Assembly (NCBI GenBank): GCA_000002445.1 | Contig: CP000068.1 | Coordinates: forward strand, 128,001-192,000 | Origin: Trypanosoma brucei | Lineage: Eukaryota | Length of the DNA stretch: 64,000 nt | Direction: 5' to 3' | Shown: piece after piece, positions 715 to 19,164 of the stretch | Layout of the letters: every line of letters begins with the position of its first letter | Numbering within the stretch: position 1 is the stretch's first letter | Notes under the pieces: model-generated | Told to the model about the DNA's origin: nothing | Seen by the model: only the letters and a program-made list of their open reading frames with translations | Database searches by the model: none | Program-made: the position numbers and the translations under genes

Positions 715-1278
715 ACTCGTGGCGGGGAAACCGTAATATTAGCGTTATTATTGCCGTTGGTGTCGATACACTCGCACGCATCCGAAGGCAAGACCGACTC
801 GGACCTCCCTCTGTTGTGTGTTTGTCTTTTTCGTTTGTTTTCCGTTTTTTGTTGTAGCTTTTTACTTTGTACCAATCGGCTTCTTAGAAAGTCCACAAAT
901 CAAGCATTCCCAATATTCCCCCTTCCCTTACACTCACCCATTAATAGCACACGGCTTACATACTGGGAAAGGAAAAGGAAGAAAAGTGCAAAACAAAAAA
1001 AAAGATTAAAAAATAATAGCAACTGTATTCCGATTGACGGAAGGGAGACGGAAGGGGGGGAGAAAAAAGCAACAAAGAGAGTGAAAAAAGTTAATCATGT
1101 CAGGTCCGTCTACCGGTTTGAAGCGGCTGGCGACCCCGACGCGGATACGAATATAGTTGATGTCGGAATATCGGTTTCATTGGCGGTGCAACATGCTTTC
1201 ACCTTTTTCTTGCATGGAGGGGGGGGAGGGATTATTTTCCTTTCCACATGTTGTGTTGTGTTGTGTTGTTGTTGTTTT

Positions 1279-2460
1279 TCACTCCCTCAGGTAACTTGGT
1301 GCCTGTTTCCCATTGGTCTCCCCTGCGGCCACATCTTCTTTTGTTCCCGGCCGCCGCTTCCGCAAGAAAAAAATTGTGACAGCGACAATAATGAGGAAAA
1401 GGGGAACGACGGCGCACACCACGTAAATGGCAATACGTGTGCCGCTGGACAACTCGGAGGTTCCTCCTTCGGAAAGTTTATCATCATCCTCAATAACTCC
1501 GTCCTCTTTTTCCGCATCATAATCCTCACCCACTTGTTCCACTTTAAAGTCCTTACCGGGACCAGCGACGGGTTTCAGCGCGGCATCCACATGTTGCACC
1601 TGATCCTTCACTCGGTCAACGGCATTCTGCACCGCCTGACAGGCATCCACGACAGGTTTCATTGCATCAATCGCTTTTTTGTAATGCTCAATCCATCCGC
1701 TCTCATCAACGGTGCATGCAGTTGATGTGAAGTATCCGTCCATTCGACACGCGGTCTCGGCGTATTCATTACGGTGGGTGGGACTCGAAGGCTTTGGTTT
1801 AACATCATTCCACTTTTCCATGGCAGCTCCCATTCCGAGATGATCCAAACCTTTCGGTTGGCCTCTGCACTCGATTTCATAAATGCCTTCACCCACAGAT
1901 TTTGTAGACACACCCCGGCAGTTGTTGTTTTCGTTGTCACTATGCGCGTTACTGGGTTTTTTGGATATGGTCTGGCAATAACTCCTCAACACTTTTCTAA
2001 TGCCGGTGTCTTCCGATTCTCCCACTGCCTTCCTGGCGGGCTCCTTGACTTTTGATATGCCACTTTGAATAACCCCAAGTTGCTTCTCAACTTCCGTCTT
2101 GGCGCTGCCGACAACCGCTAGCGCCTCGTCAAGTTCTTTCTTTGCTTTTTCTACCGCCGCCAGGTCTTTTGATCCCTTCCCGTCTGACAGTTTCTCAAGT
2201 CCCTCGCGCTCCTTCTTTATTAAATCAGTTGCGTTATCGATGTACGTAATCTTGTGTTTCGTATGATTTACGATATTTTTTTCACCCTCCCCCACTGTAT
2301 TCGCAAGAGTGTACAAACTGCATAATATTTTCGCACTATTCGCATCGAAGTGTCCGTCTGCTGGTTGCTGGTTCTCGGCAGAGGCAAATGATACCAAAGT
2401 GAACCAAAACGGCACCAGGAGTTGAAGCGACATCTTCACACGCATGAAATACATATGCAT
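1279..2460 (-). CDS. ISG-like type I transmembrane surface glycoprotein (invariant-surface-glycoprotein-related family), paralog 1
   Basis: 393-aa ORF. N-terminal hydrophobic signal peptide (LQLLVPFWFTLVSFASA). Cys-containing extracellular domain with N-glycosylation sequons. A single C-terminal TM helix (IAIYVVCAVVPLFLIIVAVTIFFL) is followed by a short basic/Lys-containing tail (RKRRPGTKEDVAAGETNGKQ...). Shares conserved blocks with the two downstream paralogs (VLRSYCQT...NNNCRG vs VLTIYCNT...NNNCDDG). The ISG65/75-like assignment comes from architecture and memory, not a search. Confidence 0.55.
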   Translation of the reverse strand: MHMYFMRVKMSLQLLVPFWFTLVSFASAENQQPADGHFDANSAKILCSLYTLANTVGEGEKNIVNHTKHKITYIDNATDLIKKEREGLEKLSDGKGSKDLAAVEKAKKELDEALAVVGSAKTEVEKQLGVIQSGISKVKEPARKAVGESEDTGIRKVLRSYCQTISKKPSNAHSDNENNNCRGVSTKSVGEGIYEIECRGQPKGLDHLGMGAAMEKWNDVKPKPSSPTHRNEYAETACRMDGYFTSTACTVDESGWIEHYKKAIDAMKPVVDACQAVQNAVDRVKDQVQHVDAALKPVAGPGKDFKVEQVGEDYDAEKEDGVIEDDDKLSEGGTSELSSGTRIAIYVVCAVVPLFLIIVAVTIFFLRKRRPGTKEDVAAGETNGKQAPSYLRE

Positions 2461-11450: not shown

Positions 11451-12941
11451 TTAGTTCCAATTCCGCACGATCTTTCCGTCCCAGTTCAACTTCTCCCCCT
11501 TCTGCATGGCGTAGTAGCGATGCGTCTTCCAGCGACGCCAAGGTGAACCCGACTTACCCCAATGCGGGTTTGCTTCCCAGTATTTCTCAATACGCTCCTG
11601 CAACAGCGGCGTGAAGTGGCGGGCCAAACCCTGCACGGGCCATGCCGCTGCGGTTGCCAACGCACAGATGGTTCGCCCCTCCAGTTGTTTAGACACATCG
11701 AGCATGGTTCCAACCTCTTCCATACGTGCGTTACCGTGGACGAAGCGTTGCATCATCTTTTCGAGCCATGGGCTTCCTTCACGGCATGGCGTACACTGGC
11801 CACATGACTCATGGGCATAAAACATAGATAAGCGATGGATAGCCGCGATAAGGTCGGTAGATTTATCCATCACTATCACCGCTGCGGTGCCGAGGCCTGT
11901 TTGCGCCTCCTTCAGCGCATCGAAATCCATGAGGACGTTATCACAAATGCTCTTTGGAATAAGAGGACAAGAAGAGCCACCAGGAATGACAGCGAGGAGA
12001 TTGTCCCATCCACCCCGCACGCCACCAGCATGACGCTCAATGAGGTCCCGCAAAGGAATACTCATCTCCTCCTCTACTGTACAGGGCCGGTTGACGTGAC
12101 CGCAAATGCAGAACAGTTTTACCCCAGCATTGTTGCGTCGACCAAATGAATTAAACCACGACGGGCCGCGCCGGAGGATTGTTGGTGACACGGACACGGT
12201 CTCCACATTTGTCACAGTGGTGGGACACCCATAAAGACCGACATTGGCCGGAAAAGGGGGTTTAAGACGTGGCTTTCCTGGTCCACCTTCAATGCTTGAA
12301 ATCATCGCAGTTTCCTCCCCACAGATGTACGCTCCCGCACCGCAGTAAGTGTATAAATCAAAATCGTAACCGCTTCCGCATGCATTGCGGCCCAAGTAAC
12401 CCCGCGCATACGCCTCTTTAATTGCCTGATCCACAGCCCTCCACTCATTGTAAAACTCGCCTCGTATGTAAATGTAACCGTAACGCGCCCGCATGGCAAA
12501 ACCTGCAATGAGAGCCCCCTCTACCAATTTGTGTGGTTCATGCCGCATAATCTCTCGATCCTTACACGTCCCTGGTTCCGATTCATCTCCATTAACGACG
12601 ATGTAACTTGGGCGGCCGTCAGGTTTGGATTTTGGCATGAAGGACCATTTGAGTCCCGATGGGAAACCGGCTCCGCCGCGGCCACGGAGTCCACTGGCCT
12701 TAATTTCATTTATAACCCAGTCGTGTCCCTTCAACAGCAAATCGCGGGTACGATACCAATCCCCTCGTCGCTCAGCACTATCAATATCTGTGCCAAAATC
12801 CTGATAAAGATTAACAAAAATGCGGTCCTGATCCTTCAATCCACCGTGTACCCGCTGCTCCTGCTGAGTTGGTGGTGGTTGAGAAGCTGCTGCCTGAAGC
12901 AAAGACCCCGTAGCGGAAAGAAAACCCACACGCCGGAGCAT
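11451..12941 (-). CDS. NDUFV1: NADH dehydrogenase (ubiquinone) flavoprotein 1, 51-kDa subunit of respiratory complex I (NuoF homolog)
   Basis: 496-aa ORF. Contains the diagnostic NAD/FMN-binding region [19 protein letters not shown], and 4Fe-4S cysteine cluster residues near [13 protein letters not shown]-terminal presequence-like region. Confidence 0.85.
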
Positions 12942-13042
12942 TAATAACTACACACAAGGTTCAATTTGATTACACAAACGCACACAACCACAAATGGTAA
13001 AGGATGTGAATGCCAAAGCGCCTGTTAAGTGAGGAACCTTTT

Positions 13043-13079
13043 AAAAAAAAAAAAACACACACAAAGAAAGAAAAACAAT
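13043..13079 (-). promoter_or_regulatory. Polypyrimidine tract upstream of NDUFV1 - putative trans-splicing signal
   Basis: The + strand reads aaaaaaaaaaaacacacacaaagaaagaaaaacaa (T/C/G-rich on the coding strand), ~100 nt upstream of the start at 12941. Confidence 0.4.
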
Positions 13080-14106
13080 CCGCGGGCTACGAGCAATAAA
13101 AATTCTGAACGATTTAGTCGCTGCTATTGTTGTTCTTGTTGCTCCCTTGATGATTATAATGATGATGATAATGATGTATATACACACGCGCCCACCTAAC
13201 AGGCACACTACAACTAATTACTACGACTATTAGAAATGATATCTTCCACTACCGCTGCGACTACTGACTGTACACGAAAAAATAAAAATAAAAATAAAAA
13301 AAGAAAATCCGCTACAACCACCACCGTCTTTCCCACACTTTATTTTTTTTTCTCCTTCTCCTTTCTCGCCCTTCGCTTCCTTCTAATAAACTCGGACAAA
13401 ATGTGGAGTCGTGACTGTCTCTTCGTTCTCTTGTGTGTTTTCCTCTATTATTGTTATTATTCTTTTTTTTTTTCTCTCTTCCTTTACTTTTCTTTACTGC
13501 CCTTTGGCGTGGTTGAATCCGCTATTTCCCTAAATGTTGGTTGGGAAGACTTAAGGGCAGGCGGGAAAGAAGGAAGGAAATAGCAGAAAAAAAAAAAAAA
13601 CTCTGCTTCGTCCCGCACAACAAAACACGCGCACGCACCTAATGTAAACCTTCCACTAGTGGACGGATGTTTTTTTTTTACAAAAAAGAAAAAAAAAGTC
13701 ACATGAATAAATGAAAGAGAAAAAGTAAAAGTAAAAAAAAAAAGAGAGAGAAATAGAAACACAGAGATATGAAGCGAGAAAGTAGAGAAAACGAAAAAAA
13801 TTCATACACCATGCAGGCAAACAGCAAACAAGAAATTACCGCAGTAACATAACGGTTGGACGCAAAATACCAATCGTACACCATTATTATTATTTGGCAC
13901 TCTCTCACCCCAAAAAAAAAAAAAACAAAGGTGCCATAAACAACTCATCAAAAATAACAGGAAAAGTAGAAAATAAATAAATAAACATGGAGTGCAATGT
14001 GAAGCCACACCGCAAAGCGCCGTACAGCACGGTTTGTAGTGGGAGCAAATGTAATCATTTGGCAACAATGCAAAATGGTGAAGGGTTGATGTTTGGCAGT
14101 GGTATT

Positions 14107-14117
<11 letters not shown>

Positions 14118-14142
<25 letters not shown>

Positions 14143-14143
14143 T
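14118..14143. repeat. (AT)n microsatellite preceded by (AC)4
   Basis: Read directly. Confidence 0.9.
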
Positions 14144-14421
14144 CAAATATGCATTTACGTACAAGAAAAATGCACACATGTCCGTGTGTGATGCTTTCCA
14201 GTGGGTGAACAATCATCAAATATGTCTACTCAAATTTTACAAGAAAAAAAATCCTGCAGATGGGCACAAATCAGGCAGCCGTGCACCTTTCCAGTAGAAT
14301 ATCATAAGGCAGCAGCAACACATGCGGTAATTAAAGATGTATTCGAAAAATAAAATAAAAATAAAATAAGCTTTATTCCCTCGCCAAACATCATCTCGCA
14401 CCATATCAAGTTGCATTTCCC

Positions 14422-14754
14422 TCATCCTCCTTCATTACCATCACTGCTATTGTTGTTGTTGTTATTATTATTATTATTAATATTATTATTGTTGTGATGA
14501 GTCCAGTTGGGGAGACACCCCGCGAGATGTTGCGCCTGGCAGCTGTGAAATTGTTCCGTAGCTTCCACACAATTTGGAGCCCAAAAACCCTCCACTTCAA
14601 TGCAACGCTGCGCAATGGCCCTCAACTCAACACATGGCGTAATTTCCTCCTGTTCTGCAAGCCGACGCTTAAAACCCTCCGGAACTTCCTCCCAAGGCAT
14701 TTGCCGGCCATTACCCACCGCATAAGTCGTACCGCCACCCTTCAATACAACCAT
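14422..14754 (-). CDS. Small twin-Cx9C (CHCH-domain) protein, putative mitochondrial intermembrane-space protein
   Basis: 110-aa ORF whose first ~85 aa are high-complexity. Two Cx9C pairs: CVELRAIAQRC and CVEATEQFHSC, separated by ~10 aa. The C-terminus runs into a poly-Asn tract encoded by an (AAT/ATT)n microsatellite. The true start may be the internal Met (MPWEEV...). Confidence 0.5.
   Translation of the reverse strand: MVVLKGGGTTYAVGNGRQMPWEEVPEGFKRRLAEQEEITPCVELRAIAQRCIEVEGFWAPNCVEATEQFHSCQAQHLAGCLPNWTHHNNNNINNNNNNNNNNSSDGNEGG
14450..14492. repeat. (TTG/TTA)n trinucleotide microsatellite (encodes poly-Asn at C-terminus of the Cx9C ORF)
   Basis: ttgttgttgttgttattattattattattaatattattatt read directly. 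Confidence 0.9.
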
Positions 14755-17421
14755 AATAACTTCTTTTATTTTTATTTTTATTTTTATTTTATTTTGCCGT
14801 TCTTCTTCTTCCTCTTCCTCCTCACAAGCACTGCCGATATGAAATTAAAAGTATCTAATTGATCAACTAATTAATTAAAATAACTAATGAACTAATGAAC
14901 TAATACGTTGGGGTTAATTGTGGTGAAATGGCCAGAATGAAACAGAGTGATGAGGGTTTAATTAATAAATAAACAAACCCAAACACCCGTACACTTCAGT
15001 TAATGAAGTTATTTCTTCCCTTCAGTCCTTTATTGGACTGAAGCCGTGTGTAACTTAATAACTTGCATATATGACACAACACACAGCAAAAAGAAAAAAA
15101 AGGAAGGAGAAAAAAAGTAAAGAAAAGTAAAGACTTGCGTTACAACACACAACAGCGCAATCATGAAGCACTCCAGCGTCAAAAAAATAAGGTGGAGTTA
15201 CAAATCTTATTTTGTAACCGTCTTTTTTTCTTTAAATAATAACAATAATAATAATTTGTTTATGTATTATTGTTGTTGTTGTTGTTTCTTTATTATTATT
15301 ATTATTTTCCTTTCCTTCATTTGACAGACCTGATACGGCCGAATTGGCTGGCCGCCGGGTGTAGAAAGTAAACCATTTTGGGACATAAACATAAAATTAA
15401 TTAATTAATTAGAAGAAGAGGAGGAGGAAAAAAAAAAAGAGGCATAACGAAAGTGACATTTACTCACTTTGCTGCTCACTCAAAATAAAACAAAACAAAA
15501 AAGAAAAGAAAAGAAAAGAGTTGGGGCACACCGCATTTCCTCATTAATAAAATATTCCTTTGGATTTGTTTTTTTTCTTTTTCTTTTCTTCTCTTCTTTT
15601 GTGTGCGCTGGCGAAGTTCCGCTGATGGGGGAGAAAAGAGAGGAAAAAAAAAAAGAGAAAAAGAAAAACAGGGATTTGTTCCCAAAGAAAAATAAATTAA
15701 ATAAACATGTGAATGGAAGGAGGGAGAAACAAAAAAAACAAATAAATAAATAATAATAATAAAAAGAAAGAAAGAGGGGCCACTGAGACAATTTGCTGCC
15801 ACAAAGAGGAATCCCTCATATCCACTCCCTTTTATTTCCTTCCATTACTAAATCTTTTTTTTTTCGCTTCGTTTCGTTTTTGTTTTTGTTTCGTTTCGTT
15901 TTTGTTGTTAAAAAAAAAAAAAAAGAGGAACGTGTCAGAAATGAGTAAATGATTTAAGGGAATCTTAAATAAATAAATGCATGGGAAATGTTGAGGATGA
16001 TTTGATACCGACGACATATCGCCCATTTATTTTTTGTTGTCGTTTGCTTTTCTTTTTCTTTTTCTTTTTTTCTTTTTTTTTTCAAGAAAAAAAAACTGCG
16101 CGCGATATTCCCTTTATTTATTCATTCATTCATTCTCACTTTAATTCGTACCTATCCGTATGATGATAATAATAATAATAATAACAACATTAATTATTAT
16201 ATTGAAATGCTATACCTTGAAATAGTAGTAGGTAATGATAATAAAATAGATTTTTTTTAAAAAATAAAAACACAACACACAACACACAACACGCCACCAA
16301 ATCATATGAAACGTAATAAAATATCAACAGCAGAAATAATAATAATGTTTGTTGCCGTTTCATATCGCATAATATATTTTACGCATGGACCTGCAGCAGG
16401 AGGTTTAAATGAGGCATTTTGGGAGATAATTCGGGCTGAAAGTCTCGAAAAAATGAAGAATAAAAAAATAGAATAAAAAAAACCGTCAAAAGGTGAGTTG
16501 TGAAGCATTGCAATGCAGCGAAGACGCAGCGATATAAATAAATATAAATATATGATAAATAAAATGATAATGATATAAACAAATCATTTTATTTTACCTT
16601 ATTTTAATATCTTCCTCTTTCCCCTCCAGTGTGCAGTTACGCATGTCCATTTTCTACCATAAACACAATAAACAACACATCTTTTATTTATTTATTTTTT
16701 TCTTTTCTTTTCTTTTCCTTTAAAATTTTTTTAAAAAAAAAAAATTATGTTTAGGCTGCAGGTCATCCCACCCACCCATTTCAAACACTAATTCGTTTTT
16801 GGTTTTGTTTTTTTTTTTAATTTTCCCTCCTCTTTATTTCCTCTGCTTGCGTTGTTAAAATCATACAACCTCTTAATTATTTTCAGCACTCTGACAAAAA
16901 CCAACAGAGGTGCGAAATAAATATTTTTCTCCCTCACGCGTCTCCTCTATTTTTTTTTTCACAAATAAAATAAAAGAAATTCATCAGGTCACTTCACCAT
17001 CTACAAATTATTAATTATTTTTCCTTTGATTTGCTTCGTTATTGACGTTACTATCACACTTTTTTTTTCTTTTTCCTTTTTGAACTACAGCCAACTGGGT
17101 TGTTCATTCTCCGAAACAAAAAAAAACAATAAAAATAAATAAAAATAAAGTGGCTAAATTATAAACAAACACTTTCACCACAATGTCACCCACTTGCAAA
17201 CTTATACTCACACACTCACAATCTCACATACACAGAAACATATAAATATATAAATATATATAATATTTCTTTTTAAAATTTCTCAGCTTCCCATTCCAGA
17301 AATGCCGGTAAACATCTCCTCCTCCTCCTCTACTTTATTCTCTTTTTTTTTCTTCTTTTTTTCTTCTTTTTTTCTTCCTTCACCACATGCACTTCTTTTT
17401 ATTATACTTTCCCCTCATCTC

Positions 17422-19164
17422 TCACATAATCTCAACAAGTTTTGTCTTCCGTGCCGCCAAAACAATACCGGACCGCTTGGAACGCCATAATGTTGCGTAA
17501 CACACAAGCGCTGATAATGTCATGGAAACACTCATCACAACACACACAAACGCATAACTCCCATTATTACGAAGTTGAATAGTTGCTTGCATGGGAGGTG
17601 CCACAAAACCACCCACCACACCTGCGAGAAATACAGCACCAAAATAAAAACCCAAATTAGGTCCATACAAATGCGTAGCGATAAGAGTTGGCATCACGGC
17701 AAACATACCCGCCATGCAGAAACCAATGATGCAAAGCAACAACGCAAAGGCAACGTAACTGCGGCCAAGGGCGAGAAGGCCACAACCGATACCACCAACA
17801 GTAGCACAGAAAACATATGCAAATTCAGCAGTAACTAATGAGGCGAGCCAACCAACAAGTACGGAACCAACAACTTGAAAGACACCATAAAAAGTGAAGA
17901 GGGTGGCGGCAACATCAGTTGGAATGGGCGGTACACCTGCATAAACAGTGCCTGGTTTACCCATAGACGAAATGTAAGGCACGGCTGCGTAAATGAGCGA
18001 GTAAAAAGCCCAACTGTATATGAACCAGCAAAGAAAGTTACCCATGAAAGGGAGAGTAAACATAGAGAGGAATAGTTCCCATGGTGTGAGCTTGTGGGTG
18101 TGGAGACTGCGTATTACCTGTGGTTCGTCTGCATCCATACTTGTATCCATATCAACATCAATAGCAGATGCAAAGGTGTTGTTCCTTTGACTTTGTTCAG
18201 TAACGTCCAAACCCTCACCATCATTCCCATTTTGCTGATTCGTGCCCACACCCCTCCCGTTAGGTGGAACCTTTGAGGTGTTGGTATGGCTGCCATTTTT
18301 CCTGCCCATTTCCCTCACGTCTTCTTTACCTTCATTGTGTCCATTATTCGCTGCTCCTTCTCCCCCCACAGTTGCCGGTTCATTACTTCTTCTGACCAAA
18401 CTTCCATTACCGGATTTATTTCCTTCCCGGGTTTCATCATCAGCGCTGCTGTCGTCTCTTTTGGGTTCACGGCGGCGAGCGGAAAGGGCGGTTGCGAGCA
18501 CTCCAATCGCACAAAATATCGACATAAGTTGAAAAGCCTTACGCCAGCCATATGCAACAACCCATTTCCCTGCTAATGGTGGAATAATGGCACTTCCAAT
18601 ACCTCCACCAGCAAAGTTAATTCCCATAGCCAGTCCCTGATAACGATTGAACCAAGAACTAGTTGCAGCAGCCCCAGGTGATAACATACATGCCGTACCA
18701 ATAGATGCAAAAAGGCAGTAAGTAAAAGTTACAACATAAATGTTCGCGGCGAGGGTTGAACTGATCCACAAACCAGTGAAGAGCAAAATGGTGGAAAGCG
18801 CCATCATGAACCGCGGCGGGAGCCGATCGACACAAAATCCTGCGAGAACACCAAAGGCAGGTGAAAGCCCCAACGAAACGGAATTTCCAAGACTAATTGC
18901 CGTTATGGAGGGAAACCCAAGTGACGGATCATTGTGCATATCCTCTGAGAAAATGGAATAACTGTTGTCAATACCATATGACATCAGTTGCATCAACAAC
19001 CCCGAAAGGGCCACGAGGTAACCGATTGGGTGGTCGGCGGGTTTACGGGTGAAACTTGGAAGCATAACTTTTTGCTTTTCTTCTTCTTTTCCGTATATAT
19101 TTAATATATATATATATATATACTTTCTGCTTATGCTCGTATTGGTATTCCGTTTCTCACCCAC
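17422..19164 (-). CDS. Major facilitator superfamily (MFS) transporter
   Basis: 580-aa ORF with ~12 predicted hydrophobic helices in two 6-helix halves. These are split by a long hydrophilic, N/G-rich central loop. The true start is likely the internal Met MLPSFTRKPADHP; the preceding residues are low-complexity. Confidence 0.7.
   Translation of the reverse strand: MGEKRNTNTSISRKYIYIYILNIYGKEEEKQKVMLPSFTRKPADHPIGYLVALSGLLMQLMSYGIDNSYSIFSEDMHNDPSLGFPSITAISLGNSVSLGLSPAFGVLAGFCVDRLPPRFMMALSTILLFTGLWISSTLAANIYVVTFTYCLFASIGTACMLSPGAAATSSWFNRYQGLAMGINFAGGGIGSAIIPPLAGKWVVAYGWRKAFQLMSIFCAIGVLATALSARRREPKRDDSSADDETREGNKSGNGSLVRRSNEPATVGGEGAANNGHNEGKEDVREMGRKNGSHTNTSKVPPNGRGVGTNQQNGNDGEGLDVTEQSQRNNTFASAIDVDMDTSMDADEPQVIRSLHTHKLTPWELFLSMFTLPFMGNFLCWFIYSWAFYSLIYAAVPYISSMGKPGTVYAGVPPIPTDVAATLFTFYGVFQVVGSVLVGWLASLVTAEFAYVFCATVGGIGCGLLALGRSYVAFALLLCIIGFCMAGMFAVMPTLIATHLYGPNLGFYFGAVFLAGVVGGFVAPPMQATIQLRNNGSYAFVCVVMSVSMTLSALVCYATLWRSKRSGIVLAARKTKLVEIM

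Follow-up and report, generated by a model that had tools for sequence, protein, structure and literature searches.

Tb927.5.460, a conserved and already catalogued twin-Cx9C protein of Trypanosoma brucei with an asparagine-rich tail of variable length

The 64,000-nucleotide stretch of T. brucei DNA analysed here (the window) contains a long spacer of low-complexity sequence, and the question raised by this locus is whether a small open reading frame within it, which carries the cysteine spacing of mitochondrial intermembrane-space proteins, is a real gene and, if so, to which protein family its product belongs. The spacer (12942..17421) extends from the downstream neighbour, encoding the complex I 51-kDa subunit NDUFV1 (Tb927.5.450; 11451..12941, minus strand), recognised by its ORF translation and published identifier, to the upstream neighbour, an ORF for an MFS-type transporter (17422..19164, minus strand) whose syntenic orthologues carry PF07690 MFS_1. 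All three genes run in the same direction. The small ORF occupies positions 14422..14754 of the minus strand, and both these coordinates and a complete frame from the ATG start to the TGA stop were confirmed by the ORF list and by a database match. Its full translation of 110 aa (MVVLKGGGTTYAVGNGRQMPWEEVPEGFKRRLAEQEEITPCVELRAIAQRCIEVEGFWAPNCVEATEQFHSCQAQHLAGCLPNWTHHNNNNINNNNNNNNNNSSDGNEGG) is identical (100% identity, 100% length) to the T. brucei brucei TREU927 protein XP_844720 / AAZ11161 / UniProt Q57VW7, which is annotated as "hypothetical protein, conserved" and bears the UniProt/UniRef label "CHCH domain-containing protein".

Q57VW7 is the product of the gene Tb927.5.460 (old ID Tb05.29K2.500; 12.193 kDa), which has been catalogued as a Cx9C motif protein, with the motifs at positions (41-51) and (62-72), and placed in the class "MIA substrate-like (domain search)" (Peikert et al. 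2017 and its supplement, PMC5436138). The original prediction had counted the ORF among those that are routinely missed. This was not the case, as the annotation has contained the gene from the reference genome onwards and the 2017 catalogue (PMC5436138) already reported it as a twin-Cx9C protein; both facts were known. A text search of the literature returned nothing under Q57VW7, B2ZWD6 or XP_844720, and nothing relevant under Tb05.29K2.500.

The twin Cx9C helix-loop-helix was located by a motif scan at 14539..14634 on the minus strand. It consists of C41-x9-C51, a loop of 10 residues and C62-x9-C72, and reads CVELRAIAQRC-x10-CVEATEQFHSC. When all six frames of the window were scanned for stop-free twin-Cx9C motifs, Tb927.5.460 was the single match. 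Composition-preserving local shuffles gave 0.27 such matches per window on average, so the motif by itself is only weakly unusual, and we accepted Tb927.5.460 as real on the basis of its conservation, that is, its syntenic orthologues with four invariant cysteines, its dN/dS and its flanks at random-level identity. In T. vivax and T. cruzi the orthologues (88 and 95 aa, respectively) are found in the same order of MFS transporter, small ORF and NDUFV1, and all four cysteines are kept; the loss of conservation at syntenic positions that had been named as grounds for dismissing the ORF is thus not seen. Over codons 1-77 the synonymous sites were saturated (pS 0.67-0.90), pN was 0.19-0.26 and dN/dS was approximately 0.10-0.13, whereas the 300 nt on each side of the gene could be aligned no better than shuffled sequence. 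It is clear that Tb927.5.460 is a real, conserved and translated gene under purifying selection.

Translation is documented by mass spectrometry, a check that had been proposed together with the prediction and that turned out positive: in procyclic whole-cell extracts, 2 unique peptides were detected that cover 23.6% of the protein, at Q = 2e-4 (Peikert et al. 2017, PMC5436138). This coverage corresponds to 26 of the 110 residues and would fit a pair of tryptic peptides, one of 12 aa and the other of 14 aa. Candidate peptides for targeted MS (PRM) would be GGGTTYAVGNGR, QMPWEEVPEGFK and LAEQEEITPCVELR. The mRNA was enriched 10.6-fold in a TbZFP3 RIP experiment, being one of 48 transcripts enriched at least 10-fold, and had a stumpy/slender ratio of 2.59 (PMC3326296). 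The stumpy bias suggests developmental regulation of the mRNA in step with mitochondrial activation.

The part of the protein that is common to the whole family is a core of aa 1-85 (14500..14754, minus strand), delimited by alignments and by dN/dS over codons 1-77. Searching this core against kinetoplastid proteins, as had been suggested, revealed a conserved family with four invariant cysteines. A profile search of 1.84 billion representative sequences gave 15 proteins at E <= 1e-3; beyond the T. vivax and T. cruzi orthologues there were 13 more homologues, reaching as far as DIPPA_20224 of Diplonema papillatum. The family, with 17 aligned sequences, thus ranges over Trypanosoma, free-living or environmental kinetoplastids and Diplonema. 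A profile search with the 17-member alignment added 2 new sequences only, and all matches resembled kinetoplastid or diplonemid proteins. No homologue from outside Euglenozoa was returned by this search or by that of the full library. No match named Leishmania or another genus of Leishmaniinae appeared in the sequence and profile searches, and the small ORF is either unannotated or lost there.

Within the family, C41, C51, C62 and C72 are invariant in 17/17 aligned homologues, and the Cx9C-x9/10-Cx9C spacing is strict across kinetoplastids and diplonemids. The second conserved element is an N-terminal segment, aa 1-29 (MVVLKGGGTTYAVGNGRQMPWEEVPEGFK; 14668..14754, minus strand), which emerged from the conservation of the 17 sequences as a signature of the family. 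In the seven Trypanosoma sequences, which share 47 invariant positions including the four cysteines, the N-terminus MVVLKGGGxTYxVGNGxQM is nearly wholly invariant and its MVVLK start entirely so. In the 17-sequence alignment, G16 and P25 are invariant and G8 and F28 nearly invariant.

The structure of residues 1-85 was predicted with AF2 using the 17-sequence alignment as input. The mean pLDDT of the model was 79.9, and its helices 39-55 and 60-80, with pLDDT of about 94-96, form the predicted CHCH hairpin; a beta-hairpin of low confidence (aa 2-13) and a helix (aa 26-34) precede it. With the motif at aa 41-51 and 62-72 and the two helices modelled at pLDDT ~94, the prediction of a twin-Cx9C (CHCH) hairpin protein was borne out. 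Foldseek comparison of the model with the PDB gave nothing at E <= 0.001; for helical hairpins of such small size, structural matching is not specific. In the CHCH fold, disulfides connect C1 with C4 and C2 with C3. By analogy, the disulfides of Tb927.5.460 would be C41-C72 and C51-C62.

We also noticed a fifth cysteine in the TREU927 allele, encoded by codon 80 (TGT; 14515..14517, minus strand) in the sequence GCLPNW; in the brucei-group alignment T. b. gambiense, T. equiperdum and the remaining sequences have arginine at this position (GRLPNW). The residue is unpaired and lies beside the hairpin with its predicted disulfide staples, a strain-specific oddity.

Behind the core the protein ends in a low-complexity tail, aa 86-110 (HHNNNNINNNNNNNNNNSSDGNEGG; 14425..14499, minus strand), which is not conserved in the alignments. 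It reads HH-N4-I-N10-SSDGNEGG, with 14 asparagines and one isoleucine between them. The asparagine tract (aa 88-102; 14449..14493, minus strand) is encoded, according to its codons and to TRF, by an (AAT)n/(AAC)n microsatellite that is interrupted once by ATT: the codons are AAC AAT AAT AAT ATT AATx5 AACx4 AAT, and TRF reports a trinucleotide array at 14462..14490 with a period of 3 and 9.7 copies. The run had been described as thirteen asparagines encoded by (AAT)n, which needs correction, since the tract is N4-I-N10, interrupted by isoleucine and made of both AAT and AAC codons. That its length is polymorphic was, on the other hand, correctly foreseen, as brucei-group sequences of 105, 110 and 111 aa exist. 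The 90% identity cluster contains proteins of 110, 110, 111 and 105 aa; the 111-aa sequence, from T. b. equiperdum, has one asparagine more, and that of 105 aa has a different end.

The asparagine-rich tail is present only in the brucei group, and the orthologues of T. congolense, T. vivax and T. cruzi end earlier and differently. Low-complexity tails recur independently in the family, with poly-Gln in two environmental kinetoplastid sequences and poly-Pro/Ala in another, and the family core always stops near residue 82, ahead of such tails. Because it is without conservation, we take the tail to be a neutral, disordered appendage; since no orthologue outside the brucei group carries it, functional importance seems unlikely. 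Its length would drift by microsatellite slippage with the core unaffected. An asparagine microsatellite within a coding sequence could be used, as a neutral marker, for typing isolates of the brucei group.

The surroundings of the gene were also inspected. Of the window's ORFs that reach 250 aa or more, 15/16 lie on the minus strand, which fits a single polycistronic transcription unit, with Tb927.5.460 in the same direction. The sole plus-strand ORF of this size (751..1725) overlaps a 393-aa minus-strand ORF (1279..2460) and is probably spurious. The gaps flanking Tb927.5.460 measure 1480 nt (12942..14421) and 2667 nt (14755..17421) in T. brucei and are full of microsatellites and homopolymers (64 TRF rows); the corresponding gaps are smaller in T. 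vivax (431 and 1315 nt) and in T. cruzi (645 and 1758 nt). At 15566..15668 a polypyrimidine and a polypurine tract face each other as 35-nt arms, 77% complementary, around a 33-nt loop. An Rfam scan of the spacer yielded only far-sub-threshold hairpin matches on purine/pyrimidine tracts, several of them, to miRNA precursors and the Phe leader, at this structure, which looks like a low-complexity artefact rather than an RNA gene. In the syntenic locus of T. cruzi there is an extra gene call of 83 aa (2050..2301 of the locus), with no Pfam match, between a methyltransferase-like gene and the MFS transporter.

The protein encoded by Tb927.5.460 is small and acidic, and has neither a presequence nor a transmembrane segment. 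The lack of both, together with the conserved twin-Cx9C geometry, points to an import route into the mitochondrial intermembrane space, where we infer the protein to be resident from these sequence features. To our knowledge, trypanosomes have no Mia40. We consider it rather probable that Tb927.5.460 is a CHCH subunit of the intermembrane space which arrives there by oxidative import and docks on an inner-membrane complex. In such a scheme, the core would begin with a strand-rich segment at the N-terminus, followed by a short helix and then by a CHCH hairpin stapled by two disulfides; the protein would be imported post-translationally into the intermembrane space, where Erv1-dependent oxidative folding would trap it. 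The invariance of the N-terminal module suggests that it serves for docking onto a larger complex, so that Tb927.5.460 may be a small structural or assembly subunit attached by this segment to an inner-membrane complex.

That the ORF arose by chance, within an intergenic spacer or a long UTR, has practically no probability left: the shuffled windows do yield an occasional motif and the surroundings are of low complexity, but a chance ORF would have no syntenic orthologues with invariant cysteines, dN/dS near 0.1 next to unalignable flanks, MS peptides or expressed mRNA, and it is ruled out by the conservation and the peptides. Another reading, which we regard as unlikely, accepts a real protein and places it outside mitochondria, for example as a cytosolic or nuclear helical protein whose cysteines bind metal or stay reduced. 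It agrees with the observation that Tb927.5.460 was seen in whole-cell extracts only and falls outside both the ATOM40-dependent importome and the mitochondrial reference set (Peikert et al. 2017, PMC5436138), and with the fact that the family reaches no cut-off of a curated mitochondrial family. Likewise, in the matches listed from the mitochondrial-fraction and ERV1-knockdown tables of the same study, seen in part, Tb927.5.460 was not found (PMC5436138); the number 20224 of the Diplonema homologue DIPPA_20224 did not occur in the accessible portions of the Diplonema mitoproteome paper and its supplements; and there was no entry for Tb927.5.460 in the available part of the TrypTag paper supplements or in the kinetoplast-loss proteome. 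Organelle proteomes, however, often miss intermembrane-space proteins that are small and yield few tryptic peptides. A location outside mitochondria is also opposed by the Cx9C-x9/10-Cx9C spacing, invariant across kinetoplastids and diplonemids, by the PDB sequence neighbours, which are mostly mitochondrial CHCH proteins, and by the single ratio below 1 on ATOM40 RNAi (0.71, quantified in 1/3 replicates; PMC5436138).

With Pfam, the T. brucei protein alone gave noise only, and the 17 members gave sub-threshold matches only, to NDUF_B7 (6/17), CX9C, COX17, CHCH, UPF0203, COX6B, CMC4 and Pet191, which are not discriminating; the best member scored 21.7 bits against CHCH PF06747 (cut-off 27.2) and 19.7 bits against CX9C PF16860 (cut-off 26.4). 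A profile search of the PDB matched mostly mitochondrial CHCH proteins: Euglena NDUFB7 with an E-value of 1.7e-5, other NDUFB7 proteins with 1-2e-3, CMC4/p8-MTCP1 with 4e-3 to 5e-2 and, as a second group, mS37 of mouse, pig, human and yeast with 4e-4 to 1e-2. The match to Euglena gracilis NDUFB7 (8iuf chain B7, 97 aa) improved from E 0.011, when the profile held 4 sequences, to 1.7e-5 when it held 17. In hhalign it reached a probability of 86.6% over 66 columns, including the stretch W-E-x-[VI]-P-x-x-F-K ahead of the hairpin; the controls, an mS37 fragment and a Chlamydomonas NDUFB7 fragment, gave 53% and 37%, respectively. When the Euglena NDUFB7 fragment was used as the query, only itself was returned. 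In the paper on the Euglena respiratory chain NDUFB7 is not discussed in the main text and the chain is merely named in the supplement. Tb927.5.460 matched no solved T. brucei complex in the PDB sequence search.

These similarities invite the assumption that Tb927.5.460 is the trypanosome orthologue of complex I NDUFB7 (B18), which is located where the membrane arm faces the intermembrane space. Besides the leading PDB profile match, which grew stronger as the family profile deepened, and the hhalign result, the similar size and loop length speak for it, as does the fact that more members (6/17) have a weak match to NDUF_B7 than to any other Pfam family; the gene also adjoins NDUFV1. We nevertheless find such orthology very improbable. 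By published assignment, T. brucei NDUFB7 is a separate protein, Tb927.9.11660, of 26.6 kDa and a member of the importome, and Diplonema has both an NDUFB7 (DIPPA_01509, 254 aa) and DIPPA_20224 of the Tb927.5.460 family. Orthologues of Tb927.9.11660 have been detected in purified trypanosomatid complex I, and the published MS subunit list of that complex contains NDUFB7 and nothing corresponding to Tb927.5.460. The scores of the family members against NDUF_B7 PF05676 are at most 16.1 bits, far under the cut-off of 26 bits, compared with 61.1 for Euglena NDUFB7. The adjacency to NDUFV1 is kept within Trypanosoma only and is lost outside it, and we rejected it as a functional clue; gene adjacency in trypanosomatid polycistronic arrays carries no functional weight. 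There is equally little to recommend the view that the protein is a divergent mS37/CHCHD1 (Mrp10) from the small subunit of the mitoribosome. In its favour are the mS37 chains, which form the second group among the PDB matches by profile, and the hhalign value of the mS37 fragment, but the match is confined to the generic CHCH hairpin, the N-terminal segment of the family has no counterpart there, and no chain of the solved T. brucei mitoribosome was matched in the PDB sequence search.

As judged by sequence comparison, the Tb927.5.460 family is a distinct, uncharacterised CHCH lineage of kinetoplastids and diplonemids whose closest detectable relative is NDUFB7; it counts as distinct since T. 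brucei and Diplonema each encode NDUFB7 in another gene and the Pfam scores of all members stay under the cut-offs. A more speculative idea, to which we give a rather low probability, is that the family split off from NDUFB7 in the ancestor of kinetoplastids and diplonemids and that its MVVxKGGGxxY...W-x-x-VP-x-WFK module docks it, as a subunit or an assembly factor, on a complex of respiration or import in organisms without Mia40.

As a discovery Tb927.5.460 matters little, being real, ordinary and already known, and the value left to it is modest. It belongs to the few conserved CHCH proteins of kinetoplastids and diplonemids without an assigned complex, in a lineage that folds its intermembrane-space proteins without Mia40, and finding its partner would fill in one part of the divergent mitochondrial machinery of Euglenozoa. 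The earlier reading of the locus was right in kind, as regards a twin-Cx9C protein with a polymorphic asparagine tail, and wrong in the novelty that it implied and in its family analogies.

These analogies were with COX17, COX19 and MIC19, and they extend to the twin-Cx9C helix-hairpin architecture that Tb927.5.460 has in common with COX17, COX19 and MIC19/CHCHD3. A closer likeness was not upheld, as there is no CCxC and no Gly2, no Pfam cut-off was reached, and T. brucei has its COX17 (Tb927.3.2650) and a Cox19-like gene (Tb927.10.15790) elsewhere (Peikert et al. 2017, PMC5436138). COX17 as such was rejected because the residues leading into the first Cx9C are ITPC instead of the CCxC copper motif, with no cysteine adjacent to C41, and the Pfam COX17 matches are sub-threshold. 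MIC19/CHCHD3 was rejected as well: the N-terminus begins with MVV, without Gly2 for myristoylation, and the core of 85 aa has no long N-terminal region of the DUF737 type. With mS37/CHCHD1/Mrp10 the protein shares a single twin-Cx9C hairpin, a similar size and weak profile similarity. The resemblance to NDUFB7 goes further, since both are small twin-Cx9C proteins, comparable in length (Euglena NDUFB7 has 97 aa), with a loop of 9-10 residues and a common W-E-x-[VI]-P-x-x-F-K stretch. The two differ, however, in that the NDUFB7 proteins of T. brucei and Diplonema are much longer than those of the Tb927.5.460 family, Euglena NDUFB7 has an 11-residue insertion within the aligned part, and the MVVxKGGGxxY start of the family is left unaligned in NDUFB7.

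TbTim15 (Tb927.2.4445), a Cx9C subunit of the TIM complex that is specific to trypanosomatids and needs Erv1 and TbMic20 for its import into the intermembrane space, is similar to Tb927.5.460 in being a Cx9C protein of the kinetoplastid lineage without a transmembrane domain. It is a separate gene with four Cx9C motifs, a member of the importome and of demonstrated function, whereas Tb927.5.460 stands outside the importome; TbTim15 illustrates what a lineage-specific CHCH protein can do.
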